Assembly (NCBI GenBank): GCA_004321885.1 | Contig: SCQK01000001.1 | Span: 1 to 55,574 of the forward strand | Origin: Patescibacteria group bacterium | Lineage (GTDB): Bacteria > Patescibacteriota > Patescibacteriia > Magasanikbacterales > GWA2-37-8 | Direction of reading: 5' to 3' | DNA: 55,574 bases | Shown here: positions 16,274 through 47,235 of the stretch, piece by piece | How the letters are laid out: each line of letters begins with the position of its first letter | Numbering within the stretch: the first letter of the stretch is position 1 | Made by a program: the position numbers and the translations under genes | The notes under the pieces: model-generated | Database searches by the model: none | Told to the model about the DNA's origin: nothing | Seen by the model: the letters and a program-made list of their open reading frames with translations, nothing else

Positions 16274-16287
16274 TTGTTTGACAGAAA

Positions 16288-22703: not shown

Positions 22704-22731
22704 GTCATTCCCGCGAAAGCGGGAATCCAGG
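22704..22731. repeat. palindromic repeat family A
   Basis: gtcattcccgcgaaagcgggaatccagg, upstream of tig. Confidence 0.8.
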
Positions 22732-32799: not shown

Positions 32800-34116
32800 A
32801 TGTCACAACTTACTGTCGTGGTTGGCGCCCAGTGGGGCGATGAGGGCAAGGGGAAAATAACCGACTATCTGGCCAAAGACGCCGACTTTGTGGTTCGTTT
32901 CCAAGGAGGCAACAACGCCGGACATACGTTGGTAGTTGGGGATAAAATTTACAAACTACACCTGATTCCATCGGGTGTTTTGTATCCGGGCGCGGTTTCA
33001 ATAATCGGCAACGGCGTGGTGGTGGACCCGCTCACCCTGCTAAAAGAAATCAGCGAGTTTAAAAAAGACGGCCTGGCGCTTAATCTAAAAATCAGCAACC
33101 GTTGTCATGTCATCATGCCATATCACATTGCCTTGGATGGGGCTTTGACCGGACATCAGGGCGGGCTGGCCGCCGGCAGCACCAACCGCGGCATTGCCCC
33201 GGTCTGCGCCGATAAAAGCTATCGTCACGGCATCCGGCTGGGCGATTTGCTGGAACCGGAAATGCTTCGGGAAAAATTAGCCGTGTCATACAATTTCAAC
33301 AAAGCGATTTTGGAAAAAATTTTTAACACGCCTTTCGCCCTGTCGGAAGAAGAAATTTATAATCAGTTTTTGGATTATGGCAAATTATTGGCGCAGTACA
33401 TTGACGATACTGATGTTTTGCTTTATCGCGCCTACAAAGAAGGCAAAAATATCTTGTTTGAAGGGGCGCAGGGTTTGTCCTTGGATCTGGATGTCGGCGT
33501 GTACCCGCATACCACCAGCACCAACACGTTGGCCAGCCATATCGGCGTGGGCACGGGCGTGGGATACGACGGGAATAAACGCGTAATCGGAGTGGCCAAG
33601 GCATACGTGAGCCGCGTGGGCACCAGTCCTTTTATCACCGAACTGCCCGAAGAAGAAGCCAAGGCCTTGCGCGACAAGGGCGGCGAATACGGCACGACCA
33701 CTGGCCGTCCGCGCCGCGTGGGCTGGCTGGATTTGGTGCAACTGCGGCAGGCCGTGCGCTGTAACGGGCTGACTGAATTGGCGCTCATTAAATTGGACGT
33801 GCTAGCCGATTATGAAAAAGTGTTGGTTTGCACCTCGTATGATATAGATGGAAAAGACACCAGAGAAATGCCGGCCAGTTTGTCGCAGTTGCGCCGGGCC
33901 AAACCGGTTTATCAAGAATTCACCGGTTGGCCGGTGATAGATGGAACGGCTTTGAAACAAGGCGGGTTTAAGGGGTTGCCGCTTGAGATAAAAAACTTTG
34001 TGGAGTTTATTGAGAAAGAAACAGAGTGTCCGATCAGTATGTTGTCGTTCGGACCGGAGCGGGAACAAACCATTATTCGTGTCATTGCGAGCGAAGCGAA
34101 GCAATCCCATTCGTAA
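32800..34116 (+). CDS. purA: adenylosuccinate synthetase
   Basis: QWGDEGKGKITD, GGNNAGHT and GTTGRG motifs. The C-terminal 12 aa are encoded by the family C repeat. Confidence 0.95.
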   Translation: MSQLTVVVGAQWGDEGKGKITDYLAKDADFVVRFQGGNNAGHTLVVGDKIYKLHLIPSGVLYPGAVSIIGNGVVVDPLTLLKEISEFKKDGLALNLKISNRCHVIMPYHIALDGALTGHQGGLAAGSTNRGIAPVCADKSYRHGIRLGDLLEPEMLREKLAVSYNFNKAILEKIFNTPFALSEEEIYNQFLDYGKLLAQYIDDTDVLLYRAYKEGKNILFEGAQGLSLDLDVGVYPHTTSTNTLASHIGVGTGVGYDGNKRVIGVAKAYVSRVGTSPFITELPEEEAKALRDKGGEYGTTTGRPRRVGWLDLVQLRQAVRCNGLTELALIKLDVLADYEKVLVCTSYDIDGKDTREMPASLSQLRRAKPVYQEFTGWPVIDGTALKQGGFKGLPLEIKNFVEFIEKETECPISMLSFGPEREQTIIRVIASEAKQSHS

Positions 34117-34163
34117 TTATAGGGATTGCTTCGGTCCCGACTAAGTCGGGGCCTCGCAATGAC
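34081..34163. repeat. composite nested palindromic element (family C arms gtcattgcgag...gaagcaatccc / gggattgcttcg...ctcgcaatgac enclosing a family-B core)
   Basis: Spans the purA stop and the annotated purL start. Confidence 0.8.
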
Positions 34164-36540
34164 AACATCAAATATGATAACGACTGATTTCACGAAAATG
34201 GATGAAGCGCAAATAAAGGAATTTTTGGTTGCCAACAGAATCGCGCTGACGGTGGAAGAAATTTTGAAGATCCAAAACGAAATCTTGAAACGGCCACCCA
34301 CGCTGGCCGAGTGTATTTTGTGGTCCATTCAGGGATCAGAGCACAGCTCGTACAAATCCAGTCGTCCGCACTTGAAACAATTTCACACCAGCGGTCCCAA
34401 CGTAATACTCGGCCCCAGTGAAGACGCCGGCATTGTGGAAATTTGCTGCGACAACGAGGGCCGAAAATACGGCGTAGTGATAAGCCACGAATCGCACAAT
34501 CATCCGTCGCAAGTGGTGCCCTACGAGGGCGCGGCCACGGGCGTAGGCGGCAATGTGCGCGATGTCTGCTGCATGGGCGCGAAAGTAATCGCCTGCGCCG
34601 ACCCTCTGCGCTTCGGACAAATTGACAGTAATAAATCCAAATGGGTGCACGAGGGCGTGGTCTCGGGCATTGCCGGCTATGGCAATCCAATCGGCGTGCC
34701 AAACATCGGCGGCGACTTGTATTACGACGAATCCTACAATGAAAATTGTCTGGTCAACATTGTTACTTTGGGTGTCTTGCGCGAAGACGACATCATACAC
34801 TCGCGCGCGCCGCAAAACGCCGATGGTTATGATTTGGTTTTGGTCGGCAAGCCAACTGACAACAGCGGCTTTGGTGGCGCCAGTTTTGCTTCGTTGGAAT
34901 TAAAAGAAGAAGAAAAAGAACTCAACAAGGGCGCGGTGCAGGAGCCGAACGCTTTTTTGAAGCGCCATTTGCTCAAATCCACCTACGCGCTTTTCAAAAA
35001 AATAAAAGAGGGCGGTTTGATGGATAAAGTGGGTTTCAAAGATTTGGGCGCCGGAGGAATTGCCTGCGCTTCAGTGGAATTGGCCGACGCGGCCGGCTAT
35101 GGCGCCGAAGTGGATATTGATAAAATCCCCAAGGGCATGAACGGACTTAATCCGGCCGTGATTTTGTGCTCCGAGACGCAGGAAAGATTTATGTGGGTGA
35201 GTCATCCGGACGTGACACCGGTTATTTTGGAGCATTATAATGAAATCTTTGATTTGCCCGGCATTGCCGAAGGCGCGCGAGCGGCGGTGGTGGGGAAAAT
35301 TCGCGCTGACGGGCGCTATGTGGTGACAGCCGGCGGAGAAGAAATCGTGAGCGCGCGAGCGCAAGACGTGACACGGGGATTATTGTACAATCGGCCATGG
35401 GAAAAACCCGAGAAAAAATTGAGTGAACCAAACTTGCCCGAGCCAACCGATTACAGTGAAATACTTTTAAAAATTTTGGCCCACGAAAATGTGGCCTCGC
35501 GTTTGCCGGTTTATGAACAGTACGACAAGCAAGTGCAGGGCATCACAATGATTGAATCGGGCCGGGCTGACGCGGGCGTTTTGCAGCCATTTAAGGATGA
35601 CAGTTACCCGGAGGAAATTCGGCAAACCGGCGTCGCTTTGTCAGTGGACCAAAATCCGCGCTACTCCAAGATTGATTCTTATTGGGGGGCGGTAAACGCG
35701 GTAGTGGAAAGCTGCCGCAATGTGGCGGCTGTCGGCGCTGTGCCGTGGGCGTTGACCGATTGTTTGTGCTATGGCAATCCGGAAAAGCCAACCCAGATGT
35801 ATGAATTCGTGGAAGGGGCGCGCGGGGTGGCCGAGGCGGCCAAGGGTTTGCATTTGAAGGACTTCCCGGAAAATCCGGTGCCGATTGTTTCGGGCAATGT
35901 GTCGCTTTACAACGAAAGCAAAGGCAAACCCATCGCTCCCAGCGCCATAATTTCATGCACCGGAAAATTGAGCGACGTGAAGTGCGCGATTGACATGTCG
36001 TTTAAAAAAGCCGACTCAATTATTTTTATGGTCGGCGAGCGCAAAGACGAATGCGGGGGCAGTGTTTATTATAATTTGTTTAAAGAATTGGGAGCCAATG
36101 TACCCAAGCCGGATTTGGCGGAAGCGGAAAAACAAATTTTTGCCGTGACTGACGCGATAGAGGCTGGTCTGGTTTTGGCGGCTCACGATATTTCCGACGG
36201 CGGCTTGGCCGTCTGCTTGGCCGAGATGAGTTTTGGAAATGAGATTGGTTTCGTCTGTCATTCCCGCGAAAGCGGGAATCCAGGGTCGCAACTTCGCCCC
36301 GACAAAGTTCTTTTTTCCGAAACCGGCGGTTTTGTTTTGGAAGTGTCGCCGGAAAACCGCGGCGCAGTGGAAGAAATTTTCGCCAAACGCGGAGTAAAAA
36401 TCTTTGCCATCGGAAAAACCGCCTGTCATTCCGGGCTTGACCCGGGATCCATAACAACGTTAAAGTTTGGAGATGTAATCAACGTACCTTTAAAAGAAGC
36501 AAAAAAAGCGTGGACAGAGGGTTTGTGGGGCAAGCTGTAA
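34126..36540 (+). CDS. purL: phosphoribosylformylglycinamidine synthase subunit PurL
   Basis: PurM-like duplicated domains of FGAM synthase II. The true start is probably MTTSNM at ~34159. Contains an in-frame family A repeat (VCHSRESGNPGSQ). Confidence 0.9.
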   Translation: MLRSRLSRGLAMTTSNMITTDFTKMDEAQIKEFLVANRIALTVEEILKIQNEILKRPPTLAECILWSIQGSEHSSYKSSRPHLKQFHTSGPNVILGPSEDAGIVEICCDNEGRKYGVVISHESHNHPSQVVPYEGAATGVGGNVRDVCCMGAKVIACADPLRFGQIDSNKSKWVHEGVVSGIAGYGNPIGVPNIGGDLYYDESYNENCLVNIVTLGVLREDDIIHSRAPQNADGYDLVLVGKPTDNSGFGGASFASLELKEEEKELNKGAVQEPNAFLKRHLLKSTYALFKKIKEGGLMDKVGFKDLGAGGIACASVELADAAGYGAEVDIDKIPKGMNGLNPAVILCSETQERFMWVSHPDVTPVILEHYNEIFDLPGIAEGARAAVVGKIRADGRYVVTAGGEEIVSARAQDVTRGLLYNRPWEKPEKKLSEPNLPEPTDYSEILLKILAHENVASRLPVYEQYDKQVQGITMIESGRADAGVLQPFKDDSYPEEIRQTGVALSVDQNPRYSKIDSYWGAVNAVVESCRNVAAVGAVPWALTDCLCYGNPEKPTQMYEFVEGARGVAEAAKGLHLKDFPENPVPIVSGNVSLYNESKGKPIAPSAIISCTGKLSDVKCAIDMSFKKADSIIFMVGERKDECGGSVYYNLFKELGANVPKPDLAEAEKQIFAVTDAIEAGLVLAAHDISDGGLAVCLAEMSFGNEIGFVCHSRESGNPGSQLRPDKVLFSETGGFVLEVSPENRGAVEEIFAKRGVKIFAIGKTACHSGLDPGSITTLKFGDVINVPLKEAKKAWTEGLWGKL
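36257..36284. repeat. family A repeat, in-frame in purL
   Basis: gtcattcccgcgaaagcgggaatccagg. Confidence 0.8.
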
Positions 36541-36590
36541 AAAAAGAAGCGGTCCCGCGAGCAAAGGCGCTCGCGGAACCGCCACGGCCC

Positions 36591-36827
36591 TCACTTGGAC
36601 CCCAGACCCGAGACGGACTTGTAGTTCACGCCGAGGTAGAGCGTGCGGTCCGTGCCGAGCGCATTGAACTGCTCGATCTGGGTCCGGATGCTCTGAAGCA
36701 GGGCCTCCCCGACCGTTTTCGGATCGCCTCCGTCCGGGATGCTGGACGTCTCCTTGTTGTCGTCCAGGTTCCTTGCCGCTCTACTGACGGGCGTCTCTCC
36801 ATAGTCTTCCCCATCATCAGGCCTCAT
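36591..36827 (-). CDS. small acidic hypothetical protein (78 aa) in a GC-rich islet inside the pur operon
   Basis: AAGGAGAGG RBS 5 nt before ATG. GC-rich. Flanked by the hairpin gcggtcccgcgagc/gctcgcggaaccgc at 36546-36585. Confidence 0.4.
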   Translation of the reverse strand: MRPDDGEDYGETPVSRAARNLDDNKETSSIPDGGDPKTVGEALLQSIRTQIEQFNALGTDRTLYLGVNYKSVSGLGSK

Positions 36828-36896
36828 CGCGTCCTCTCCTTGTCTTGCCCCCTTAAAATTCTAAATCGTACTCAATTCTACAAAAATTAGCCATTT

Positions 36897-38060
36897 ATGT
36901 CAAACATCTCTTATTCCGATTCCGGCGTCAATTACCAGGCGCTTGATCCGGTGAAAAAATTGGCGCAAATCGCGGCCCGGTCCACGGCTCGTCATTTGTC
37001 GTCGTCCGGTTTCACCGAATCAGAAGACACGCGCGGCGAGTCGGCTTATGTTTGGCAGCAAGGCGACCTCCTGATGGCCTCGGTCATTGAAGGCCTGGGC
37101 ACCAAAAATTTGGTGGCTGACGCCATGCGTAAAATTACCGGCAAGACCTATTACGATATTGTCAGCCACGATACTGTGGCTACGATTATAAACGATCTTG
37201 TTTCGGTGGGCGCCAAGCCGCTTGCTCTCTTCGCTTACTGGGCCGTGGGCAAAAGCGAATGGCTGGCCGACGCGGAAAGGACAAAGGATTTGGCGGACGG
37301 CTGGAAGTCGGCTTGTGATTTAGCCCAAGTTTCCTGGGGAGGCGGCGAAACCCCCGCCTACGCCGGCATCATTAATCCGGAGACCATTGATTTGGCAGGT
37401 TCGGCCGTGGGTATTATTAAAGATAAAAATAATTTGCTCACGGACAAAAAAATACAGGCCGGAGACAGGATAATTTTTTTGAAAAGCAACGGCATAAACG
37501 CCAACGGTTTGTCGCTGGCGCGCGCGATTGCAAATACCCCCTCCTCGCCTCCCCCTTATAAAGGGGGAGGAAATCGTCTCCCTCCCCTTTATAAGGGGAG
37601 GGTTGGGGAGGGGTATGGTGCCAAGCTGCCAAGTGGCGTAATGTACGGAGAAGCATTACTCACAAAAACAAACATCTACGCGAAATTGGTACAGGACTTG
37701 CAGGCGGCAGAAGTAGATATACATTATATTACAAATATCACCGGACATGGATTGCGTAAAGTTATGCGCGGTAGGCCGAATTTTACATACGTAATAGAGA
37801 AAATTTTTGAACCGCTGGAATTATTTATTTTTATGCAAGGTCAGGCCGGGCTTTCGGATTTTGAAATGTATCAGACGTTTAACATGGGGCAGGATTACGC
37901 GATTTACTTATCAGCCGCCGACGTGGCCCGCGCTTTGGAAGTGATAAAACAAAATAATTTTACAGGCATTGAGGCGGGTTTTGTGGAAGCGGGCGAAAAG
38001 CGCGTGATAATCAAACCGAAGAATTTAGAGTATAAAGGAGAGACGTTGGATTTGAGATAA
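36897..38060 (+). CDS. purM: phosphoribosylformylglycinamidine cyclo-ligase (AIR synthetase)
   Basis: SYSDSGVNYQALDP and PurM N- and C-terminal domain patterns. Contains a tandem in-frame family D insertion (SPPPYKGGGNRLPPLYKGRVGEG). Confidence 0.85.
   Translation: MSNISYSDSGVNYQALDPVKKLAQIAARSTARHLSSSGFTESEDTRGESAYVWQQGDLLMASVIEGLGTKNLVADAMRKITGKTYYDIVSHDTVATIINDLVSVGAKPLALFAYWAVGKSEWLADAERTKDLADGWKSACDLAQVSWGGGETPAYAGIINPETIDLAGSAVGIIKDKNNLLTDKKIQAGDRIIFLKSNGINANGLSLARAIANTPSSPPPYKGGGNRLPPLYKGRVGEGYGAKLPSGVMYGEALLTKTNIYAKLVQDLQAAEVDIHYITNITGHGLRKVMRGRPNFTYVIEKIFEPLELFIFMQGQAGLSDFEMYQTFNMGQDYAIYLSAADVARALEVIKQNNFTGIEAGFVEAGEKRVIIKPKNLEYKGETLDLR
37537..37614. repeat. tandem family D repeats, in-frame in purM
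   Basis: cccctcctcgcctcccccttataaagggggagg...cctcccctttataaggggagggttggggaggggt. Confidence 0.8.
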
Positions 38061-38065
38061 ACATT

Positions 38066-39412
38066 ATGAAAGTCGCCATCATACAATTCCCCGGCAGTAA
38101 CTGTGAATCGGAATCCATTTACGCGGTGCGGCGCGCCGGCATGGAGCCGGTGGAATTTTTGTGGAATCAAGAGCACGACGAGCTGAAAAATTTTGACGGC
38201 TATTTCATCGTGGGCGGATTTTCCTACGAAGACCGCTCGCGCTCGGGCATCATCGCCTCGCTTGATCCCCTGCTTACCGCCTTGAAAGCGGAAAACGAAA
38301 AAGGCAAACCGATTCTGGGCGTTTGCAATGGGGCGCAGATTTTGGTGGAGTCGGGCATTGTGCCGGGCCTAGCCGACTATGCCGTGGGCCACCACACCAA
38401 AGATTTTGGTGTGGTGGCAGGTATGGCGCTCGCTGTAAACAAACGAGTGAAAGACGGACGCGTGCTGGGCACCGGATTTTATAATTCCTGGTCCAACGTC
38501 CAACTGTCGGCCCCGAGCGAACGCTCGGCTTTCACGCGCCACATGAAGCCGGGCGAATTTATAAATATTCCCGTGGCGCACGGCGAAGGCCGCTTTACCA
38601 TGCCGGACGAACTCTTGGCCGAATTGATTGTCAAAAACCAAACAGTGTTTCGCTACTGCGATGACAGGGGAGAAATCAGTTCGGAATTTCCGGTAAATCC
38701 GAACGGCTCCATGCATAATTTAGCGGCTGTCTGCAACGCGGCCGGCAACGCCATGGCCATGATGCCCCACCCCGAACGCACGCCGAACGGCCAAGCCATT
38801 TTTACTTCCATGCGCGAGTATGTTGAAAAAGAAAAAACCATAACGATGAAAAACGTTACGGATAATTTCCGGCCAACCGTGATGGAAATATCCGAGTATA
38901 AGCCGGAACCAAATTCTACAGAATTAGTCATCGGTTTAATCATTACAGACAATGAAGCCGGCACGGTAAAAAATACTTTGCGTCGGTTGAATATTGACGC
39001 GGAAATTACGAAATACATTCACTGGGAAATTTCGGCTGACGACCCGGCGACGATTGTCGCTTCGCCGGCTTGCCGCGACGAGCTATTTAACTCCAACAAA
39101 GAAAAGATAGTGCAACTGGGCTCCACAGCCCCGGTCGCCTGCGGCGACCGTGGGACTATGGAGTCAACCAATGCGCTTCAGAATGACAATACGGCTTATC
39201 TGCTCGTGCGCTATCGCGAAGATTTCGTGGGGCAAAGCAAACAGTATGTTTTGGAAAATCGGCTGGGCGTTTCCGGGGTTAAAAAGATAACCAAAGGCAC
39301 GCTCTGGAAAATTTCCGCGCCCAGTGATAGGATTGAGGAAATCGTAAGCAAGGTTATTTCCAGCAGGATTTTATTCAATCAATTTTCACAGGGGTGTTTT
39401 AAATATATATAG
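38066..39412 (+). CDS. purQ: FGAM synthase glutaminase subunit PurQ with a ~210-aa C-terminal extension, possibly tandem PurS-like domains
   Basis: Class I glutamine amidotransferase triad: GVCNGAQIL Cys and the His in PHPER. The extension resembles two ~85-aa PurS-like modules. Confidence 0.8.
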   Translation: MKVAIIQFPGSNCESESIYAVRRAGMEPVEFLWNQEHDELKNFDGYFIVGGFSYEDRSRSGIIASLDPLLTALKAENEKGKPILGVCNGAQILVESGIVPGLADYAVGHHTKDFGVVAGMALAVNKRVKDGRVLGTGFYNSWSNVQLSAPSERSAFTRHMKPGEFINIPVAHGEGRFTMPDELLAELIVKNQTVFRYCDDRGEISSEFPVNPNGSMHNLAAVCNAAGNAMAMMPHPERTPNGQAIFTSMREYVEKEKTITMKNVTDNFRPTVMEISEYKPEPNSTELVIGLIITDNEAGTVKNTLRRLNIDAEITKYIHWEISADDPATIVASPACRDELFNSNKEKIVQLGSTAPVACGDRGTMESTNALQNDNTAYLLVRYREDFVGQSKQYVLENRLGVSGVKKITKGTLWKISAPSDRIEEIVSKVISSRILFNQFSQGCFKYI

Positions 39413-39413
39413 T

Positions 39414-40805
39414 ATGGATTACACTTCCATCATCAGACAAAATCTGAATAATTGTCTGACGCAGACGAATTTAAATATCGGCAAGAAAAAAATTGGCAAG
39501 GTGCGCGATACCTATGAACTCGCCGATAAAATGATTCTAGTCACTACTGACCGACAGAGCGCTTTTGACCGCATTTTGGCTTCCATCCCGTTTAAGGGGC
39601 AAGTGCTCAATCAAACCAGCGCCTGGTGGTTTGAAAAAACCAAACACATTATCCCCAATCATGTTTTGTCTATCCCCGACCCCAACGTGACCATGGCCAA
39701 AAAATGCCAAGTTTTTCCGATTGAGTTTGTGGTGCGCGGGTATATCACCGGCACCACCGACACTTCGGCTTGGGTAAATTATCAAAAAGGGGTGCGTAAT
39801 TTTTGCGGCAACGCTTTACCCGAGGGTCTGAAAAAAAATCAGCAGCTGGCCAAGGCGATTGTCACGCCCACCACCAAGTCCGACGCCCACGACCGTCTGA
39901 TCAGTCCCGAAGAGATTATCGCCGAAGGACTGATGTCGCGTGAAGATTGGAACTTCGCTTCAACCAAGGCCCTGGAACTTTTTGAATTCGGCCAACAAGT
40001 GGCTCGCGAGCACGGCTTGATTTTGGTTGACACCAAATACGAGATGGGTAAAGACGAAAACGGCAATATTATTTTGTTAGACGAGATCCACACGCCCGAT
40101 TCCAGTCGCTATTGGATCGCCGAAACATACGAAGACCGTTTCGCCGCCGGACAAGAACCGGAAAACATAGATAAAGAATTTTTGCGCTTGTGGTTTAAAG
40201 AACACTGCGACCCGTATGGCGACAAAGAACTGCCGCCGGCGCCCGAGGAATTGGTGGTGGAATTATCCCGCCGCTATATCATGCTTTACGAAATGATTAC
40301 TGGCGAAAAATTTGTTTTCCCGGAGGACGCCGACATCAACGAGAGAATGAAAAATAATTTGGCTGTCATCGCGAACTCTCCTCTGAGAATAAACTCCGCA
40401 AAGCAACCCCCCGCAAAAAGGGCGGTGATAATAATGGGTTCGGAAGCGGACGCGGAGTTCACGAAAAAGATTACGATAAAATTGGACGAACTGGGGGTCA
40501 GCCACGAAGAGCATGTCGCGTCGGCGCACAAACAGCCGGCAAAGGTTTTGGAAATTTTAGAGAAAAATAAAAATGAGAAAGTGGTGTACGTGACCATCGC
40601 CGGCCGTTCCAACGCGCTCTCGGGTTTTGTGGCCGCCAATTCCGACGCGCCCACCCTGGCCTGTCCACCCTTTGTCGACAAGCTGGATATGCTCGTGAAC
40701 ATTCACTCTACTTTGCAGATGCCGAGTAACGCGCCAGTTTTAACCGTGCTTGATCCAGGCAACTGCGCCTTGGCCGTTAAAAGAATTTTTGATATATGTC
40801 GCTAA
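39414..40805 (+). CDS. purC: fusion protein: SAICAR synthetase (PurC) plus C-terminal PurE (AIR carboxylase / N5-CAIR mutase) domain
   Basis: PurC N-terminal motif GKVRDTY...VTTDRQSAFD. PurE C-terminal motif AVIIMGSEADAE...VASAHKQP...VTIAGRSNALSGFVAANSDAPTLACPP. Confidence 0.85.
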   Translation: MDYTSIIRQNLNNCLTQTNLNIGKKKIGKVRDTYELADKMILVTTDRQSAFDRILASIPFKGQVLNQTSAWWFEKTKHIIPNHVLSIPDPNVTMAKKCQVFPIEFVVRGYITGTTDTSAWVNYQKGVRNFCGNALPEGLKKNQQLAKAIVTPTTKSDAHDRLISPEEIIAEGLMSREDWNFASTKALELFEFGQQVAREHGLILVDTKYEMGKDENGNIILLDEIHTPDSSRYWIAETYEDRFAAGQEPENIDKEFLRLWFKEHCDPYGDKELPPAPEELVVELSRRYIMLYEMITGEKFVFPEDADINERMKNNLAVIANSPLRINSAKQPPAKRAVIIMGSEADAEFTKKITIKLDELGVSHEEHVASAHKQPAKVLEILEKNKNEKVVYVTIAGRSNALSGFVAANSDAPTLACPPFVDKLDMLVNIHSTLQMPSNAPVLTVLDPGNCALAVKRIFDICR

Positions 40806-42130
40806 CTTCCGTTTCTCCCTTAGACGGACGCTACGAAAGCCAGACAAAAGAACTCTCCCCCTATTTTTCCGAAATGGCGCTGATGAAATATCGCGTCATG
40901 GTTGAAGTTGAGTATTTAATCGCGTTGGGGGCGGAGAAAGAAATTAAGGAAGTCATTCGCTTTTCGGAAAAAGAGCAAAAAAATTTACGCTCGCTTTATA
41001 AGCGCTTTTCTTTGGCCCACGCCGAGCGGGTGAAAGAAATTGAAAATACCACCAGTCATGATGTGAAAGCGGTTGAGTATTTTATTAAGGAGAAATTTCC
41101 CAGTGAATTTATACATTTCGCGCTGACTTCCGAGGACATCAATAATCTTGCCTATTCTTTAATGCTTAAAGACGGATTGGAAAAAGTGATTTATCGCGCC
41201 GTGGAGCAGATTTTGAAAGCGCTTAAAAACTTGGCCAAAGCCAACGCCCGCGTTCCCCTGCTGGCCTTCACCCATGGCCAGCCCGCCACCCCCACCACGC
41301 TCGGCAAGGAAATGGCGGTTTTTTACAAACGGCTTTTACGCGGCCTGAATCACCTCAAATTTATCAAACTGGACGGAAAATTAAACGGGGCCACCGGCAA
41401 TTACGCGGCCGCGGCCTTGGCCTACCCGCAAGTTGACTGGATAAAATTTTCCCAAAAATTCGTGAGCTCGCTGGGCCTGAACCCTAATTTGCTCACCACG
41501 CAGATAGAACCGCACGATTGTTCGGCCGCGGTTTACGACGCCATCGCGCGCCTGAACAATATTATAAAGGACTTGGACCAGGATATATGGCTCTACGTCA
41601 GCCGCGGCATTTTCAAATTGCGAAAAAAAGCCGGCGAGGTCGGCTCTTCCACCATGCCGCACAAAGTGAACCCGATTAATTTTGAAAACAGCGAAGGCAA
41701 TCTGGGTGTGGCTAACGCCATTTTGCGTTTCATGTCCGACAAGCTGGTGGTAAGCCGTCTGCAACGCGACCTCACCGACAGCACGGTGATTCGCAATCAA
41801 GGCGCGGCGCTGGGCTACAGTCTGCTCGCCTATAAAAATACGCTCAAAGGTTTGGAAAAATTGGAAGTGAACAAAAAACAATGCGAGAAAGAGCTGGATG
41901 AGCATTGGGAAGTACTGGCCGAGGCGGTGCAGACGGTTTTGCGCAAGGTGGGATACGAGAAGCCCTATGAAAAATTGAAAGAATTGACCCGTGGAGAAAA
42001 AGTGGATAAAAAAATAATGCGGGCTTTTATAGCGGGACTGGAAATTTCCAATGAAGAAAAAAATAAATTGATGAAATTGACACCCGCAAAGTATGTAGGG
42101 TTGTCGGAGAAATTAGTAAAGTTAATTTAG
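40796..42130 (+). CDS. purB: adenylosuccinate lyase
   Basis: SPLDGRYES... and the fumarate lyase signature GSSTMPHKVNP. Confidence 0.95.
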   Translation: MSLTSVSPLDGRYESQTKELSPYFSEMALMKYRVMVEVEYLIALGAEKEIKEVIRFSEKEQKNLRSLYKRFSLAHAERVKEIENTTSHDVKAVEYFIKEKFPSEFIHFALTSEDINNLAYSLMLKDGLEKVIYRAVEQILKALKNLAKANARVPLLAFTHGQPATPTTLGKEMAVFYKRLLRGLNHLKFIKLDGKLNGATGNYAAAALAYPQVDWIKFSQKFVSSLGLNPNLLTTQIEPHDCSAAVYDAIARLNNIIKDLDQDIWLYVSRGIFKLRKKAGEVGSSTMPHKVNPINFENSEGNLGVANAILRFMSDKLVVSRLQRDLTDSTVIRNQGAALGYSLLAYKNTLKGLEKLEVNKKQCEKELDEHWEVLAEAVQTVLRKVGYEKPYEKLKELTRGEKVDKKIMRAFIAGLEISNEEKNKLMKLTPAKYVGLSEKLVKLI

Positions 42131-42132
42131 TT

Positions 42133-42214
42133 GTCATTGCGAGGAGGCCTGCAGGCCGACGCGGCAATCCCTTACAAGTTTGGGATTGCTTCGGCCTAAA
42201 GGCCTCGCAATGAC
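42133..42214. repeat. family C composite palindromic element filling the purB-purF intergenic region
   Basis: gtcattgcgag-gaggcctgcaggcc...gcaatccc / gggattgcttcggcctaaaggcc-tcgcaatgac. Confidence 0.8.
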
Positions 42215-42222
42215 AAAATTCT

Positions 42223-45072
42223 ATGTGCGGAGTTGTAGGAATTTATTCCAAAAAACCAGTGGCGCAGGAATTGTATGATTCTTTAATCCACTTACAGCAT
42301 CGCGGGCAAGACGCGGCCGGCATTTTGACGTACCAAGAAAAATTTCATTTCAAAAGGGGGCTGGGACTGGCGCGCGATATTTTCCACACGCACGACATGG
42401 AGCGGCTCACCGGCAATATCGGCATCGCGCACACGCGCTACCCCACCACCGGCCGCATTGAAATTGAAGATGCCCAGCCGTTTTGGACCGGCGTGCCTTT
42501 TGGCATGGCCTTGGCGCATAACGGCAATCTGGTAAATTACAACGAGGTCAAGCGTAAGGTTTTTGAAGAACGTCATCGCTATGTCAACTCCACCAGCGAC
42601 GGCGAAGTAATTTTGCACGTGTTGGCCGATGAGTTGGTAAAAGGCATGGCAGAAAATCACGTTGATACTTTTTTTGACCTGCTGTGCGACGCCGTGGCCC
42701 GTCTTTTCAAAGCGACCAGCGGAGCATATTCAGTGGTCAGCATTATCGTGGGCAAGGGCATGCTGGCGTTTCGCGATCCGCATGGCATCCGTCCGCTCAC
42801 GCGTGGCGCGCGCGTCAATCCCGATGGCAGCAAGGACTATATTTTTGCTTCCGAAAACATCATGTTTTATCCGCTTGGCTTTAAGCAAGAAGAGGATGCA
42901 AAACCCGGCGAGGTGATATTTATAGACAACGACGGCAATTTACACAGCAGAGTGGTTGGACGCGAAGCCGCTTTGGGCCAGCGCGAACCCGAATTTTCTC
43001 CTTGCATTTTTGAATACATTTATTTCGCGCGCCCAGACTCTATGATGAATAACGTGAGCGTGTACCGCTCGCGTCTGCGCATGGGACAAAATTTGGCCAA
43101 GGCGTGGAAGACAAAATTTCCCAACGTAATGCCCGACGTCGTCATACCCGTGCCTTTCACTTCCAACACCGCGGCATTGGCCATGGCGCACGAACTCGGC
43201 GTGCGCTACAGCGAAGGACTTTATAAAAACGCCTTCATCGGCCGCACTTTTATCATGCCCAATCAGGAATTGAGGCGAAAGTCAGTGCGCTACAAGCTTA
43301 ATCCGCAGGAAACGGAAATTCGGGACAAAAATGTGATGCTTTTGGACGACAGCATCGTGCGCGGCACGACCAGCCGTGAAATCGTGCAAATGATGCGTGA
43401 GTTTGGAGCCAAGGAAGTATATTTTGTCACCACTTGCCCGCCGGTCAAATTTCCGTGCTTTTACGGAGTGGACATGCCTACGAAATCAGAACTTGTCGCG
43501 TCGGCCCGGACCGAAGAAGAAGTGAGATTATATATCGGCGCTGATATTTTGCTTTATCAAAACATTCCCGACTTGGTGGAAGCAGTCACGCGCGTTCAAA
43601 GCATAGAGCACCCATGTATGGCTTGCCTGAACGGGCACTACGTGACCGGCGACGTGGATGAAAAAAAATTTAAAGAAATAGAAGCGAGTAGAAATAAAGA
43701 TAAGGGGATTAAAAAATCTATGGATATACTTATTATCGGTTCAGGAGCACGCGAGCATGCGATTGCGCGCGCGGTGGTTCGCTCACCGCAAAAACCGCGG
43801 CTGTTTTGTTTTGCTTCAAGCAACAACCCGGGCATACGCGAACTATCGGTCGGTTACGCGGTGGGAAAAATTACCGACCCAACGGCGGTGATAAATTTCG
43901 CCAAAGAGAACGCGATTGATATCGCTATCGTGGGCCCCGAAGCCCCGCTGGCCTCTGGCGTGGCTGACGCCTTGTGGGCGGCAGGCGTGGCTTGTGTTGG
44001 ACCAAAGCAAAAATTGGCGCGGCTGGAAACGAGTAAGGGTTTTACGCGCGATTTACAGGCCGAATTTAAGATTCCGGGCAGTCCGAAATACAAAAAATTC
44101 AGTTCTTTGGAAGGGGCTAAAGAATTTTTATCCGAGCTCGGCGATTTGTACGTGGTAAAAGCGGACGGCCTGATGGGAGGCAAAGGAGTGAAAGTGGCCG
44201 GGGATCATTTGCATACTTATGAAGAAGCGCTGGCCTATTGTCAGGAATTATTGGATAGTTGTCATTCCCGCGAAAGCGGGAATCCAGGTGCGGCCTTTGT
44301 CATCGAAGAAAAGTTAATCGGCCAGGAATTTTCACTGATGAGTTTTTGCGACGGCGAGCATTTGGCTCACACGCCCGCGGTTCAAGATCACAAGCGGGCT
44401 TTTGACGGCGACCAGGGGCCAAACACGGGAGGCATGGGAAGTTATAGCGACGCGGATCATAAATTGCCTTTTTTGACTGATGAAGATATCTGGCAGGCGC
44501 GCGAGATAAATAAAAAAACCGCGGTGGCTTTGAAGGCGAAATTCGGGGAGGGATATGTTGGTGTTTTGTATGGAGGATTTATGGCTACGGCGGACGGAGT
44601 AAAATTGATAGAGTATAATGCCCGTTTGGCCGACCCGGAGGCGATGAACATATTGGCCGTGCTGGAATCGGATTTCGCGGCGCTGTGTCAGGCGATTGTG
44701 GGCGGAAATTTAAGACAAGAGCACGCGCTTTTCGCGAACAAGGCGACGGTTTGTAAATACGCCGTGCCCGAGGGCTACCCGGACAGTCCGGTAAAAAATC
44801 AAAAAATAGACACGAGCGGCGTAGCCGACAAAAATCAATTGTATTTGGCTTCGGTTGACGCGCGAGATGATGGGTTGTACGAACTGGGCTCGCGCGCCAT
44901 CGCGGTGGTGGGCGTGGCCGATACAATTGCCGAGGCGGAAAAAATTGCGGAAGCGGAAGTCAACAATATCAAAGGCCCGCTGTTTCACCGTCAAGACATT
45001 GGAACTCCGGAATTAATTAATAAGAGAATCCAACACATGTCATTCCTGCGAAAGCAGGAATCCAGGATATGA
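42223..45072 (+). CDS. purF: fusion protein: amidophosphoribosyltransferase (PurF) plus phosphoribosylamine-glycine ligase (PurD)
   Basis: N-terminal MCGVVGI nucleophile and PRTase domain to ~aa 480. A continuous frame then runs into the PurD ATP-grasp domain (MDILIIGSGAREHAIA...). Two in-frame family A repeats. Confidence 0.85.
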   Translation: MCGVVGIYSKKPVAQELYDSLIHLQHRGQDAAGILTYQEKFHFKRGLGLARDIFHTHDMERLTGNIGIAHTRYPTTGRIEIEDAQPFWTGVPFGMALAHNGNLVNYNEVKRKVFEERHRYVNSTSDGEVILHVLADELVKGMAENHVDTFFDLLCDAVARLFKATSGAYSVVSIIVGKGMLAFRDPHGIRPLTRGARVNPDGSKDYIFASENIMFYPLGFKQEEDAKPGEVIFIDNDGNLHSRVVGREAALGQREPEFSPCIFEYIYFARPDSMMNNVSVYRSRLRMGQNLAKAWKTKFPNVMPDVVIPVPFTSNTAALAMAHELGVRYSEGLYKNAFIGRTFIMPNQELRRKSVRYKLNPQETEIRDKNVMLLDDSIVRGTTSREIVQMMREFGAKEVYFVTTCPPVKFPCFYGVDMPTKSELVASARTEEEVRLYIGADILLYQNIPDLVEAVTRVQSIEHPCMACLNGHYVTGDVDEKKFKEIEASRNKDKGIKKSMDILIIGSGAREHAIARAVVRSPQKPRLFCFASSNNPGIRELSVGYAVGKITDPTAVINFAKENAIDIAIVGPEAPLASGVADALWAAGVACVGPKQKLARLETSKGFTRDLQAEFKIPGSPKYKKFSSLEGAKEFLSELGDLYVVKADGLMGGKGVKVAGDHLHTYEEALAYCQELLDSCHSRESGNPGAAFVIEEKLIGQEFSLMSFCDGEHLAHTPAVQDHKRAFDGDQGPNTGGMGSYSDADHKLPFLTDEDIWQAREINKKTAVALKAKFGEGYVGVLYGGFMATADGVKLIEYNARLADPEAMNILAVLESDFAALCQAIVGGNLRQEHALFANKATVCKYAVPEGYPDSPVKNQKIDTSGVADKNQLYLASVDARDDGLYELGSRAIAVVGVADTIAEAEKIAEAEVNNIKGPLFHRQDIGTPELINKRIQHMSFLRKQESRI
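44261..44288. repeat. family A repeat, in-frame in the purD portion
   Basis: gtcattcccgcgaaagcgggaatccagg, translating to SCHSRESGNPGA. Confidence 0.8.
45039..45066. repeat. family A variant (cctgcg/cagg) at the purFD 3' end / purN start
   Basis: gtcattcctgcgaaagcaggaatccagg. Confidence 0.75.
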
Positions 45073-45653
45073 TAAAACTCGCCGTCCTCGGCTCTACCCG
45101 CGGCACAGACATGCAGGCGATAGTTGACGCGATTGAGCGAAAGGAGCTGAACGCAAAAATTGAAGTAGTGGTAAGCAATAAGCTGGACGCGTATATCTTG
45201 GAACGCGCGCGCAGGCACGGTTTGGAGGCGGTTTTTGCGGACATGAGAAGAGAAAGTGGAGAAAAAAAAACGCGCGAAGAATTTGACGCCGAGGTTTTAA
45301 AAATTTTAGAGGCAAAGCAAGTTGATTTAGTTTTGCTTATTGGCTATATGCGTATTTTATCGCCTACCTTTGTGCGAAAATACAAGGGCCGAATTTTGAA
45401 CGTGCACCCTTCCTTGCTTCCGGATTTCGCCGGCGGCATGGACATGGATGTGCACGCCGAGGTAATAAAAGCGGGCGTGAAAGAAACCGGTTGCACGATT
45501 CACCTGGTGGACGAGGGCGTGGATACAGGAGAGATTATTTTGCAAAAACGCTGCGCCGTGGAGCCAACCGACACAGCCGACACGCTCAAAGCTAAAGTGC
45601 AAAAACTTGAAGGTGAAGCGTTTGTGGAGGTATTAAGAAATTGGAAATTTTAA
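45069..45653 (+). CDS. purN: phosphoribosylglycinamide formyltransferase
   Basis: ILNVHPSLLP and the rest of the formyltransferase core. Confidence 0.9.
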   Translation: MIKLAVLGSTRGTDMQAIVDAIERKELNAKIEVVVSNKLDAYILERARRHGLEAVFADMRRESGEKKTREEFDAEVLKILEAKQVDLVLLIGYMRILSPTFVRKYKGRILNVHPSLLPDFAGGMDMDVHAEVIKAGVKETGCTIHLVDEGVDTGEIILQKRCAVEPTDTADTLKAKVQKLEGEAFVEVLRNWKF

Positions 45654-45654
45654 T

Positions 45655-47235
45655 ATGCATACAGAAGTCGTTAGAATAAATCGGGCGCTGATTTCGGTGT
45701 CAAATAAAACCGGCATAGCGGAGTTTGCCCGCGAACTCCAAAAATTGGGCGTGGAAATAATTTCCACCGGCGGCACGCACAAATTGCTTTGCGAAAACAA
45801 AATACCGGCCGTGGAAATTTCCCAGTACACCGGCTTTCCGGAAATGATGGACGGCCGCGTGAAAACCCTGCACCCCTTGGTGCACGGTGGCATCTTGGGT
45901 TTGCGGGATAAACACGCCGAAGCCGCAGCCGGCCATAATATTAAATGGATTGATTTGGTGGTTTGCAATTTGTATCCTTTTTTGGAAACAATAAAAAAAC
46001 CCGGCGTAACCGAGGAGGAAGCGATTGAAAACATAGACATCGGCGGGCCCACCATGATTCGCTCGGCCGCCAAAAATATTGGCTGGACGTGCGCGGTGGT
46101 TGACCCCGAGGATTATAGTAAAATTTTGGCTGAAATAAGAGAAAAAAACGGAGTAAGTTTTGACACGCGCAAAGCACTTTCGGCGAAAGCGTACGCGCAC
46201 ACGACGCGCTATGACGCGGTGATTTCCAATTATTTCAAGCCGGAAAAATTTCCCAAAGAACTCTCGCTCGGTTTTGCTAAATATTATGATTTGCGCTACG
46301 GCGAAAATCCGCATCAGCAAGCCGCGGCCTACAAAGACGAGCTCTGCGCCACAGCGAATATTTTTTTAGCGAAAATCTTGCAGGGCAAGCAGTTATCGTA
46401 CAACAATTTCATTGACGCGGACGCGGCCCTGCAGATGGTAAAGGAATTTGAGCCGCCGGCTTGCGTGATTGTGAAGCATAACAATCCCTGCGGAGCGGCC
46501 ATTGCCGAAAACGCGGAAGCGGCTTTCGCCAAAGCGTTTGCCTGCGATTCGTTGTCGGCTTTCGGCGGGGTGGTGGCGCTTAATCGCGAGTGCGACGCGG
46601 CTCTGGCCGAGAAACTCTCCAAAATATTTTTGGAAATCGTGCTCGCGCCCAAGTTCGCGCCTGCGGCCGTGGAAATTTTATCTAAAAAACAAAATCTGCG
46701 CTTGCTGGAATTGGAAAAAATATCAGTGCCGGCCAGCCGGCTGACTTACAAGCTGATTGAGGGTGGGCTCTTGGCGCAAGACAGCAATACAAAAGAAATT
46801 ACCGAAGCGGATTTGAAAGTCGTGACCAAGCGCCGGCCCGAAACAGGCGAAATTCAAGCCATGCTCTTCGCCTGGAAAATATTGAAGCACATGAAATCAA
46901 ACGCCATTTTGATAGCCAAGGCCGACGCCACGGTGGGAATCGGCGTGGGCCAAGTGTCACGCGTGGATTCGGTGGATATTGCCATAAAAAAATCCGGTAT
47001 GGCTGGCTCCATAGTCCCCGACTTAGTCGGGGCCGTGGAGCCGTTCGCCGGCTGCGTGCTGGCCTCGGACGCCTTTTTCCCCTTCCGCGACAGCATAGAC
47101 AAAATCGCGGCCGCCGCCGGCGTCAAAGCCATTGTCCAGCCCGGGGGTTCCATCAAAGACCAGGAAGTCATCGCGGCCTGCGACGAACACGGCATCGCCA
47201 TGGTCTTTACCGGCCATCGCTGTTTCGCGCATTGA
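45655..47235 (+). CDS. purH: bifunctional AICAR transformylase / IMP cyclohydrolase
   Basis: MGS-like N-terminal region (ALISVSNKTG) and the AICARFT domain. Contains an in-frame family B repeat. Confidence 0.95.
   Translation: MHTEVVRINRALISVSNKTGIAEFARELQKLGVEIISTGGTHKLLCENKIPAVEISQYTGFPEMMDGRVKTLHPLVHGGILGLRDKHAEAAAGHNIKWIDLVVCNLYPFLETIKKPGVTEEEAIENIDIGGPTMIRSAAKNIGWTCAVVDPEDYSKILAEIREKNGVSFDTRKALSAKAYAHTTRYDAVISNYFKPEKFPKELSLGFAKYYDLRYGENPHQQAAAYKDELCATANIFLAKILQGKQLSYNNFIDADAALQMVKEFEPPACVIVKHNNPCGAAIAENAEAAFAKAFACDSLSAFGGVVALNRECDAALAEKLSKIFLEIVLAPKFAPAAVEILSKKQNLRLLELEKISVPASRLTYKLIEGGLLAQDSNTKEITEADLKVVTKRRPETGEIQAMLFAWKILKHMKSNAILIAKADATVGIGVGQVSRVDSVDIAIKKSGMAGSIVPDLVGAVEPFAGCVLASDAFFPFRDSIDKIAAAAGVKAIVQPGGSIKDQEVIAACDEHGIAMVFTGHRCFAH
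47007..47044. repeat. family B 38-bp palindrome, in-frame in purH
   Basis: ggctccatagtccccgacttagtcggggccgtggagcc, translating to GSIVPDLVGAVEP. Confidence 0.8.

Follow-up and report, generated by a model that had tools for sequence, protein, structure and literature searches.

The window, that is, the whole 55.6-kb stretch of DNA that was analyzed, encompasses a complete block of genes for de novo purine biosynthesis located between polA and holA. The genes were identified by Pfam and NCBIfam profile matches over the ORFs of the window, and all those of the pathway, from folD through purH, are on the plus strand:

28593..31271, plus strand, polA, the upstream flank and a conserved synteny anchor (Pfam match)
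31795..32709, plus strand, folD (PF00763 and PF02882, E-values from 1e-32 to 1e-52)
32800..34116, plus strand, purA, adenylosuccinate synthase (NF002223, 518 bits, above the cut-off of 402)
34126..36540, plus strand, small purL, FGAM synthase II (NF002290, 671 bits, above the cut-off of 648)
36591..36827, minus strand, 78-aa antisense ORF in the purL-purM gap, not a pathway gene
36897..38060, plus strand, purM, AIR synthetase (TIGR00878, 172 bits, below the cut-off of 236)
38066..39412, plus strand, purQ, with the glutaminase at aa 1-242 and a C-terminal tandem PurS-like domain (213 bits)
39414..40805, plus strand, purC-purE fusion (NF009251, 441 bits; PF00731, 106 bits)
40796..42130, plus strand, purB, adenylosuccinate lyase, responsible for two steps (NF006764, 670 bits, above the cut-off of 446)
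42223..45072, plus strand, purF-purD fusion (TIGR01134, 461 bits; TIGR00877, 425 bits)
45069..45653, plus strand, purN, GAR formyltransferase (TIGR00639, 190 bits, above the cut-off of 150)
45655..47235, plus strand, purH, AICAR formyltransferase/IMP cyclohydrolase (PF01808, E-value 1e-118; PF02142)
47247..48260, plus strand, holA, flanking the block downstream, the second synteny anchor (Pfam match)

The initial, sequence-only reading of this DNA described a complete, co-directional purine block with fusions and overlapping ends, and the profile matches bear this out, the sole strand exception being the 78-aa ORF; the start of the block was put at 32800, with folD just outside. True overlaps occur at two junctions, purCE/purB (10 nt) and purFD/purN (4 nt), four junctions span 1-11 nt, and the three larger gaps measure 90, 356 and 92 nt. 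All eleven ORFs are intact and full-length, with neither frameshifts nor internal stops, and the translations retain the catalytic motifs: MCGV in PurF, GVCNGAQ and HPER in PurQ, and SAHK in PurE. [quoted passage not shown] An Rfam scan for riboswitches detected only three tRNAs, and guaA, guaB, prs and glyA, which adjoin purH in relatives, were not found within the window.

On the route from PRPP to IMP, steps 1-3 are covered by PurF, PurD and PurN, all above the family cut-offs, step 4 by the small PurL and PurQ with its PurS-like domain, and steps 7-10 by PurC, PurB and PurH; the AMP branch genes purA and purB and the one-carbon gene folD are present as well. In the proposed pathway, PurF-PurD would produce phosphoribosylamine and then GAR on a single polypeptide, and PurN, supplied with 10-formyl-THF via FolD, which would also serve PurH, would yield FGAR. 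The small PurL and PurQ would generate FGAM, with the tandem PurS-like domain in place of a free PurS, and PurM would form AIR. In PurC-PurE, the class II PurE would carboxylate AIR directly, so that PurK and ATP would be dispensable, and SAICAR would follow; PurB and PurH would complete IMP, and PurA with PurB would yield AMP.

Four of these proteins deserve attention. The AIRS-family protein at the purM position has PurM structures as all its best PDB matches, yet scores below the equivalog cut-off of TIGR00878. It is 66% identical to PurM of Candidatus Magasanikbacteria bacterium RIFOXYD2_FULL_41_14 (GCA_001784475.1), the nearest named relative, but only 27-30% identical to PurM of three other clusters (30% for Marinimicrobia); judged by these identities, it is a divergent type that, among the clusters compared, is common only to that relative.

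The PurS-like domain of PurQ spans aa about 268-448 (nt 38867-39409), and there is no free purS gene in the cluster. Against the Pfam PurS profile, the domain scores 18.7 bits, under the cut-off of 22.2, and the search of PDB with its sequence profile gave no significant match; the putative PurS role is assigned by fold comparison, the sequence evidence being sub-threshold. The family of PurQ-fused PurS-like domains comprises 363 clusters among 1.84 billion representative proteins.

The PurC-PurE fusion is PAICS-like by domain content, with an N-terminal SAICAR synthetase (aa 1 to about 317, Pfam match 27-270) and a C-terminal class II AIR carboxylase (aa about 338-463, match 338-459) on one chain; a palindromic element may be the origin of the linker of about 20 aa. 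Among solved structures, the PurE half, which carries the SAHK motif, is closest to 3rg8, 5c5d, 4ja0, 2ywx and 2h31, and all N5-CAIR mutases rank lower; 3rg8 and 5c5d are Treponema denticola class II PurE. No purK was found in the cluster, and step 6 is assigned to the predicted class II PurE alone. Direct carboxylation with CO2, without PurK, is expected of class II PurE (PMC3261824). Fused homologues number about 20 in relatives, and such fusions are also encoded in Galdieria and Blastocystis. The second fusion combines PurF (aa 2-473) and PurD (aa 500-930), is identical to TAN34259.1, a protein labeled ‘Patescibacteria group bacterium', and is matched by fused homologues from about 16 close relatives as well as from DPANN archaea. 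No stable complex of PurF and PurD from E. coli has ever been found (PMC10912719), and the natural fusions could permit structural study of phosphoribosylamine channelling.

The 78-aa ORF in the purL-purM gap possesses its own promoter-like site (36903-36875, 11/12 matches) and a terminator-like stem of 16 bp (36583-36548). It has no Pfam or PHROG match and no homologue in the RIFOXYD2_FULL_41_14 cluster, and the same junction in relatives contains unrelated small ORFs. A 126-aa plus-strand ORF (36510-36890) was considered as a candidate PurS but showed neither a family match nor conservation relative to the ORF that occupies this position in RIFOXYD2_FULL_41_14, and was given up for the better-supported minus-strand ORF.

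Short interspersed palindromic elements of several families occupy about ten in-frame sites within purA, purL, purM, purQ, purD and purH, at positions that coincide with insertions specific to the window compared with four orthologous clusters:

34081..34163, no strand assigned, nested palindrome of 83 nt with terminal repeats GTCATTGCGAG / CTCGCAATGAC, read from the sequence, spanning the purA stop and the purL start
36250..36284, plus strand, in-frame family-A insertion in purL, peptide CHSRESGNPG (exact 28-mer match; window-only; DNA fold z -4.2)
36424..36450, plus strand, in-frame variant palindrome in purL, peptide CHSGLDPG (window-only compared with four orthologues)
37533..37607, plus strand, two adjacent in-frame family-B palindromes (CCTCCCCCTTATAAAGGGGGAGG) in purM (DNA fold z -4.8)
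38387..38419, plus strand, in-frame family-C insertion in the purQ glutaminase domain (14-bp stem; 11 aa window-only)
39131..39181, plus strand, in-frame insertion with the hairpin CGGTCGCCTGCGGCGACCG in the loop between the PurS-like halves of purQ
44260..44288, plus strand, in-frame family-A insertion in the PurD domain, peptide CHSRESGNP (exact 28-mer match; window-only)
45037..45069, plus strand, family-A variant (28-mer with two mismatches) that forms the PurFD C-terminal tail MSFLRKQESRI and reaches the purN start
47005..47043, plus strand, in-frame palindrome in purH with the core GTCCCCGACTTAGTCGGGGCC (DNA fold z -5.4)

The 83-nt palindrome has a DNA fold of -33 kcal/mol (z -9.8), and the last 10-11 aa of PurA together with the stop codon come from a palindromic element, giving the window-only C-terminus VIASEAKQSH. 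The insertion at 39131..39181 is window-only with respect to the Magasanikbacteria orthologue of RIFOXYD2_FULL_41_14, but with four orthologues in the comparison, insertions specific to other lineages align with it, leaving just the flanking residues as window-only; in further homologues, this loop contains different elements. Additional copies of these elements include a second family-C palindrome in lspA (6446-6474) and members of the purH family at 34133, 50105, 50259 and 54580, and the family-A 28-mer has exact matches in at least 120 unrelated metagenome contigs. The elements would be native to this genome and inserted at tolerant positions of the enzymes with the frames unbroken. About ten insertions might impair the enzymes.

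In the sequence-only reading, the operon appeared unusually saturated with in-frame repeat insertions. The in-frame insertions are real but they are interspersed palindromes rather than repeats within a gene (TRF and direct-repeat scans found no tandem repeats in the pur genes), and the purine block is no more hairpin-loaded than the rest of the contig, with 0.71 perfect hairpins per kb inside and 0.52 outside (p=0.43). The window as a whole contains 32 loci with perfect hairpins (stem of at least 8), compared with 6.9 +/- 2.3 in shuffles; GC-rich hairpins occur at 0.43 per kb, compared with 0.05 per kb (0.24 per kb for all hairpins) at the orthologous cluster loci of relatives, flanks included.

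The conjecture that the source is a CPR bacterium holds up. PolA, used for the marker-gene placement, is 61-64% identical to homologues from Candidatus Magasanikbacteria and less than 50% identical to others, and groups with Magasanikbacteria in a neighbor-joining tree of this single gene, built without support values, in which the position of one relative is disregarded because its PolA was frameshifted as extracted. The genes for tig, H+-PPase, M23 peptidase, polA, holA, rmuC and a TPR protein follow the same order in two Magasanikbacteria genomes, one of them RIFOXYD2_FULL_41_14, with holA 54-55% identical to the holA of both, and the PurF-PurD protein carries a Patescibacteria label; the taxon labels of the compared contigs are the depositors' own. 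The contig lacks rRNA genes and a ribosomal-protein operon. By these sequence markers, the organism is a member of the Magasanikbacteria clade (ABY1) of CPR. That most CPR lack the pathway is also borne out, a survey having found 93% of the genomes without it (bioRxiv 10.64898/2026.06.21.733656); published surveys already report a purine-competent minority.

The expectation that the organism has more autonomy than is typical of its relatives did not survive comparison. Its PolA places it with Magasanikbacteria, the nearest named member of which has the same cluster, on contig MFRE01000006.1 (the PolA match is on MFRE01000011.1, a separate contig of the same assembly), in the order folD-purA-purL-purM-purQ(long)-purC-purE-purB-purFD-purN-purH. 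The sequence-only reading would be overturned by marker placement in a lineage for which full purine synthesis is normal, and this is essentially what the comparison shows. At least three further contigs labeled Magasanikbacteria or Patescibacteria carry the cluster in this order, folD also heads it in three of the contigs so labeled as well as in RIFOXYD2_FULL_41_14, and many more PurQ and PurC proteins are labeled Magasanikbacteria and Kerfeldbacteria. Unlike the window, RIFOXYD2_FULL_41_14 has separate purC and purE, guaB and guaA after purH, far fewer palindromic insertions, a GC content of 40% in the cluster compared with 50% in the window, and the cluster away from the polA-holA junction. 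Because the closest relatives possess the same cluster, it is an ordinary trait of the sub-lineage rather than an exception, and Magasanikbacteria-type CPR appear to keep the purine operon as a rule. The biosynthetic poverty of CPR is lineage-specific, and the contig is one more example, not a new principle; a literature search on purine synthesis in Magasanikbacteria specifically returned nothing.

The location of the cluster differs in every genome examined. These differing positions also fit repeated transfer among related CPR. In many ABY1 genomes, polA and holA are near-adjacent, with holA 0.1-4.6 kb after polA in relatives. The block in the window breaks this adjacency, which is conserved across ABY1, and RIFOXYD2_FULL_41_14 and a second Magasanikbacteria genome hold other cargo at the junction, namely ATPase_2/DUF234 and TrmB genes. 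A recent horizontal acquisition could be envisaged, in which a 16-kb island from a non-CPR donor, such as Marinimicrobia, was set between the two genes, in view also of the concatenated identity to the window, which is 59% for the Marinimicrobia clusters and hardly higher (61-62%) for the CPR ones. Such an event is nevertheless unlikely: GC and GC3 of the block are indistinguishable from those of the flanking polA and holA, the block is loaded with the palindromic families of the genome itself, the PurF-PurD fusion and the divergent PurM are shared specifically with the cluster of the nearest relative, and the divergence from that cluster (50-75% amino acid identity of the Pur proteins, mean about 61%) equals that of core proteins (47-82%, mean about 61%).

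The contig comes from a metagenome assembly and a very similar operon is present on Marinimicrobia-labeled contigs, so that the operon of another organism might conceivably have been mis-joined into a CPR contig. The same palindromic families, among them the identical 28-nt element, are found inside the block and outside it, in the dnaA-proximal, tig-proximal, lspA and polA regions, and this weighs against a chimeric contig. CPR-syntenic genes on both sides of the block in one contig, the uniform composition and the presence of the same cluster in independent Magasanikbacteria assemblies likewise speak against such an artefact of assembly or binning, which is exceedingly improbable.

Nor is it likely that the operon is on its way to pseudogenization in an organism that may still scavenge purines. 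The about ten in-frame insertions, the sub-threshold score of PurM, the interruption of the operon by the antisense ORF and its strong terminator-like hairpin, and guaA and guaB not adjoining purH as they do in relatives are what decay might look like. Against this stand the intact, full-length ORFs, the retained catalytic motifs and the preservation of the reading frame by every intragenic insertion. The one insertion that could be checked on a structure model, 39131..39181, coincides with the only low-confidence stretch (residues 87-105) of the PurS-like domain model and falls between the domain halves, and the divergent PurM, conserved at 66% with that of the relative, is therefore under constraint.

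Most probably, then, the block is a functional, presumably expressed de novo purine operon typical of its lineage, a Magasanikbacteria-like CPR of class ABY1, which was inherited vertically within the clade and relocated to the polA-holA junction. Vertical inheritance is suggested by the matching identity levels and by two derived traits in common with the nearest relative, its PurF-PurD fusion and divergent PurM.

The deeper history of the cluster seems to extend beyond CPR. On contigs labeled Marinimicrobia or Neomarinimicrobiota, the order is purA-purL-purM-purQ(long, about 418 aa)-purC-purE-purB-purF-purD-purN-purH, and PurQ likewise has the C-terminal PurS-like domain; in contrast to the window, there is neither a purC-purE nor a purF-purD fusion, folD is not at the head, PurM is of another type, and these large contigs belong to another phylum and have neighbor genes of the free-living type. 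The 11-gene order and the unusual PurQ-PurS architecture, both of which recur in Marinimicrobia, suggest that the cluster as a whole was transferred between that phylum and ABY1 CPR long ago. More generally, and quite tentatively, the compact purine operon could have travelled between these groups as one transferable module. Its hallmarks may be PurQ with a tandem PurS-like domain, a class II PurE independent of PurK, and a progressive joining of successive steps into fused proteins (PurF-PurD, also present in DPANN archaea, and PurC-PurE; in relatives, also PurA-PurM and PurN-PurH). If so, ultra-small symbionts could regain nucleotide prototrophy, and the natural PurF-PurD fusion would provide in stable form the complex for phosphoribosylamine channelling that has long been sought.

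Nucleotide synthesis in CPR was described in 2016, the first such organism being Ca. Peribacter riflensis of the Peregrinibacteria (PMC4736985), which, unlike the source of the window, belongs to a different CPR class. The palindromes within essential enzymes, a noteworthy by-product of this analysis and one for which no description in CPR was found in the library searched, resemble the Rickettsia palindromic elements (RPEs), which are multi-copy and located both between genes and in-frame within unrelated metabolic genes, where they add short peptides (PMC10969869). The elements of the window share all these features of multi-copy, palindromic, intergenic and in-frame occurrence, but are 20-35 nt long (with one 83-nt composite), compared with about 100-150 bp and a conserved peptide in RPEs, and are unrelated in sequence; thus, they behave like RPEs but are not RPEs. 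In size and palindromy, they match REP elements (extragenic palindromes of 20-40 nt), which together with MITEs are the other known kinds closest to them, but many copies are intragenic, the sequence as read has no consistent GTAG or CGTC tag, and no transposase (RAYT) was found in the window, which argues against assignment to REPs.

Among the enzymes, PurC-PurE is similar to animal PAICS and the T. denticola class II PurE (2h31, 4ja0, 3rg8) in the order of PurC and PurE on one chain, the SAHK motif and the PurE half, but unlike PAICS, it is of bacterial origin and has a PurC of the PRK12607 type and a linker of ~20 aa. The fusion of PurQ with a tandem PurS is a rare FGAM synthase architecture and another noteworthy by-product. 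When set beside the N-terminal domain of the large PurL, the standalone PurS and the archaeal mdPurL (PMC3261824), the module of the window resembles mdPurL in being a PurS-like unit of ~200 aa fused to a partner, with no free purS gene, but differs in its place: it extends PurQ at the C-terminus instead of PurL at the N-terminus.

The purine genes of the window, called from an ORF listing together with family scans (Pfam and NCBIfam equivalog cut-offs), form a run on the plus strand, as claimed in the sequence-only reading, although the start assigned there to the block, 32800, leaves out folD, which that reading had itself named as a member.

Genes of the purine block (coordinates, strand, gene, basis of assignment)
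31795-32709, plus, folD; both Pfam domain thresholds passed, no narrow FolD equivalog cut-off passed
32800-34116, plus, purA; family scan
34126-36540, plus, small purL; family scan
36897-38060, plus, purM; 172 bits against an NCBIfam cut-off of 236
38066-39412, plus, purQ (448 amino acids); family scan
39414-40805, plus, purC-purE fusion; family scan
40796-42130, plus, purB; family scan
42223-45072, plus, purF-purD fusion; family scan
45069-45653, plus, purN; family scan
45655-47235, plus, purH; family scan

The majority of these genes exceed the NCBIfam equivalog cut-offs, the exceptions being folD, purM, for which the nearest solved structures are all PurM despite the sub-cut-off score, and the PurE half of the fusion, which falls short of TIGR01162 (100.5 bits; cut-off 149.6) but passes Pfam AIRC (106 against 30). 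The genes meet in two overlaps (10 and 4 nt), four short junctions (1-11 nt) and three larger gaps (90, 356 and 92 nt). The 356-nt gap separates purL from purM and contains a minus-strand ORF of 78 amino acids, so that the block is not strictly one co-directional unit. This ORF has a promoter-like site close to consensus and a terminator-like hairpin stronger than any other in the region, and the antisense ORF and the hairpin suggest that transcription is divided into at least two units, folD-purL and purM-holA. Between polA and folD, on the minus strand (31263-31715), lies the gene for an RF-1-domain protein (ArfB-like peptidyl-tRNA hydrolase) of about 150 amino acids when read from an internal Met; the mechanical ORF of 250 amino acids is probably too long and would overlap folD.

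Neither a free purS gene nor purK was found in the block. PurQ, however, is 448 amino acids long with the glutaminase match confined to residues 1-242, and its C-terminal extension is kept in PurQ homologues of about 420 amino acids. The structural model of the extension (22-sequence alignment; pLDDT 86.5, pTM 0.81) has a duplicated beta-alpha-beta topology, and its best 17 Foldseek matches are all large PurL (FGAM synthetase); against Pfam PurS, the extension scores 18.7 bits, below the cut-off of 22.2. Large PurL has a PurS-like pseudo-dimer as its N-terminal domain, and because the modeled fold of the extension matches large PurL, we conclude that the window PurQ bears its own tandem PurS. 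The family of this PurS-like domain comprises 363 clusters in 1.84 billion representative proteins, where the domain is nearly always C-terminal, in proteins of about 410-460 amino acids; a PurS-like module fused to a partner is exemplified by archaeal mdPurL (PMC3261824).

The PurE half is closest to 3rg8, 5c5d and the PAICS chains 4ja0 and 2h31, with every N5-CAIR mutase ranking lower, and contains a SAHK motif that aligns with the SAHK of 3rg8. Both 3rg8 and 5c5d are class II PurE of Treponema denticola. Enzymes of class II carboxylate AIR directly, without PurK (PMC3261824). Given the PurS-like domain in PurQ and the class II-like PurE, both apparently missing steps are accounted for, and the block is predicted from sequence to encode the entire route from PRPP through IMP to AMP, FolD providing the formyl donor, in agreement with the initial claim of a complete de novo pathway. 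No guaB, guaA, prs or glyA was found within the 55.6-kb window.

The gene identities, domain order, folds and motifs are demonstrated by these comparisons; we infer that the enzymes of the block are active and that the fusions pair consecutive steps. The PurF-PurD fusion would pass phosphoribosylamine between its two halves, the PurC-PurE fusion mirrors PAICS, and PurQ-PurS would pre-assemble part of the FGAM synthase complex. In Escherichia coli, phosphoribosylamine channeling is a kinetic inference, and a stable complex has never been isolated (PMC10912719).

The assignment of the contig to a CPR lineage proved correct. NCBI protein TAN34259.1, labeled 'Patescibacteria group bacterium', matches the window PurF-PurD exactly, and because the sole contig of that protein is 55574 nt long, the window is the whole of it. 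In a PolA comparison with one genome per GTDB species, the nearest proteins come from one Patescibacteria MAG (63% identity) and two Candidatus Magasanikbacteria (61-64%), followed by Falkowbacteria (about 48%) and non-CPR phyla (35-39%), and the neighbor-joining tree (a single gene, with no support values) places the window within the Magasanikbacteria group. Finally, tig, H+-PPase, M23 peptidase, polA, holA, rmuC and a TPR protein gene occur in the same order, with 45-83% identity, in the window and in these two Magasanikbacteria genomes, one of them RIFOXYD2_FULL_41_14 (GCA_001784475.1).

In both of these genomes, the polA-holA interval is devoid of pur genes and occupied by one ATPase_2/DUF234 and one TrmB-like gene; polA and holA are near-adjacent in many other ABY1 genomes. 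RIFOXYD2_FULL_41_14 nevertheless has the purine cluster, on contig MFRE01000006.1, in the order folD-purA-purL-purM-purQ-purC-purE-purB-purFD-purN-purH, followed by guaB and guaA, and this cluster sequence is also found among Rifle metagenome contigs. The two clusters share two derived characters, the PurF-PurD fusion and an atypical PurM (window 36897-38060; 7387-8496 in L092, a record of the RIFOXYD2_FULL_41_14 cluster), with 66% mutual identity and only 27-30% identity to purM of other clusters. The Pur proteins of the window and RIFOXYD2_FULL_41_14 are 50-75% identical (mean about 61%), the seven syntenic core proteins have an equal mean, and the GC and GC3 of the block are those of polA and holA. 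The shared derived characters, core-like divergence and matching composition thus point to vertical inheritance of the cluster in the Magasanikbacteria clade, combined with relocation.

In the sister clusters, the genes other than purM are 55-75% identical, and the distinct purM type of the window and RIFOXYD2_FULL_41_14 suggests gene replacement at the purL-purM junction. This junction is variable (window 36541-36896; L092 7097-7336; 8077-8903 in L089, a Hainich-groundwater Patescibacteria contig), with small minus-strand ORFs in all three genomes (78 amino acids in the window, 79 in L092, 147 and 128 in L089) that have neither Pfam or PHROG matches nor mutual similarity.

The same gene order is found on L089, on the Magasanikiibacteriota contig L088 and on the Magasanikbacteria-labeled contig L219, and numerous further PurQ and PurC proteins are labeled Magasanikbacteria or Kerfeldbacteria. 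A related cluster on L081 (FLOH01000114.1) keeps this order with additional fusions, purA-purM (4778-7129, 783 amino acids) and purN-purH (12825-14963, 712 amino acids), and with a large PurL substituting for small PurL and PurQ. Within this CPR sub-lineage, the purine cluster appears to be usual, and public records already contain it, so the claim that the organism is more autonomous than its relatives is not supported. Across Patescibacteriota, de novo nucleotide synthesis is absent from 93% of the genomes, with the genes scattered (bioRxiv 10.64898/2026.06.21.733656); in Peribacteria, nucleotide synthesis pathways are essentially complete (PMC4736985), and in a groundwater survey, IMP synthesis was complete in 32% of CPR MAGs (PMC11608272). 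A literature search found no published account of the Magasanikbacteria purine cluster.

A matching order, purA-purL-purM-purQ(long)-purC-purE-purB-purF-purD-purN-purH, is found on contigs labeled, from PurQ, Marinimicrobia/Neomarinimicrobiota, with free-living-type genes beside the cluster. In a concatenation of eight proteins, the window shares 59% identity with one of these contigs (L090) and 61-62% with the CPR clusters, in contrast to the mere 35-39% for PolA against non-CPR phyla. Because the gene order and the rare PurQ-PurS architecture are common to both phyla, it appears likely that the cluster passed as a unit between Marinimicrobia and CPR long ago, in one direction or the other. 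Fused PurF-PurD also occurs in Diapherotrites and Woesearchaeota (36-42% identity), with no pur neighbors at the one DPANN locus examined. The PurC-PurE fusions of the eukaryotes Galdieria and Blastocystis (P0327, P0343, P0345) are 65-68% identical to the window PurC portion, and thus almost as similar to it as bacterial homologues are.

Elsewhere in the window (17713-19607, minus strand), the gene for an AbiEii-type nucleotidyltransferase toxin (427 amino acids) adjoins an overlapping upstream gene for a 204-amino-acid partner, and the two probably form a toxin-antitoxin (type IV) or abortive-infection system; in L081, an AbiEii gene likewise adjoins the purine cluster. A 1.3-kb stretch without genes and with several GC-rich hairpins (14954-16287) follows the minus-strand dnaN and dnaA (12221-16287 region) and is probably where the replication origin lies; from about 28 kb on, the cumulative GC skew climbs steadily.

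The chief interest of the block lies in the PurQ-PurS architecture, the natural PurF-PurD fusion and the in-frame palindromic elements. The repeat insertions noticed initially are real and keep the reading frame, but a repeat scan detected no tandem repeats; they are several families of short palindromes.

Palindrome families of the window
14956-14983 and 22704-22731 (both intergenic), 36257-36284 (purL), 44261-44288 (purD), 45039-45066 (PurFD tail): five copies of the 28-mer GTCATTCCCGCGAAAGCGGGAATCCAGG
Gene 2246-4012, lspA, polA, folD-purA spacer, purM (twice): CCTCCCCCTTATAAAGGGGGAGG-like
lspA and purQ, one copy each: hairpin with a 14-bp stem
purL 5' end, purH and three downstream sites: GTCCCCGACTTAGTCGGGGCC

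When insertions are defined by alignment with four orthologous clusters, those specific to the window coincide exactly with palindromes, in purA, purL (three, including the doubtful N-terminus), purM (two), purQ, purD and purH; a second purQ insertion (39131-39181), window-only against L083 (RIFOXYD2_FULL_41_14) only, is the sole low-confidence stretch of the PurQ-extension model. Every palindromic insertion keeps the frame, the elements form strong single-strand folds (z from -4 to -10), and an 83-nt nested palindrome provides the 3' end of purA (10-11 codons plus the stop) along with the nominal purL start. Perfect hairpins are 4.6-fold more frequent over the whole contig than in shuffles; their density in the block is far above that of the orthologous cluster loci of relatives, but not above the rest of the contig. 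That the same palindrome families lie both within the block and beyond it speaks against a chimeric contig.

Exact copies of the 28-mer are present in at least 120 metagenome contigs (soil, sediment, marine, groundwater), one of them 2.26 Mb long, which exceeds the typical CPR genome size of about 1 Mb; it is also found on L107, on the polA-bearing contig of RIFOXYD2_FULL_41_14 (18448-18472) and on L145, where one 8-kb stretch has 10 copies of the 25-nt core, six of them full 28-mers. Its reverse complement encodes the peptide DSRFRGND, which in the Magasanikbacteria-type PurQ P0128 occupies the loop where the window bears another insertion. The purC-purE linker (40368-40425), which starts with GTCATCGCGAAC and ends with GCAAAGCAAC, resembles a decayed copy of the GTCATTGCGAGC...GCAATC element at the purA-purL junction, and, speculatively, the fusion may have arisen by such an element replacing the stop codon and spacer. 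The window elements behave like the palindromic elements of Rickettsia (PMC10969869), yet are far shorter.
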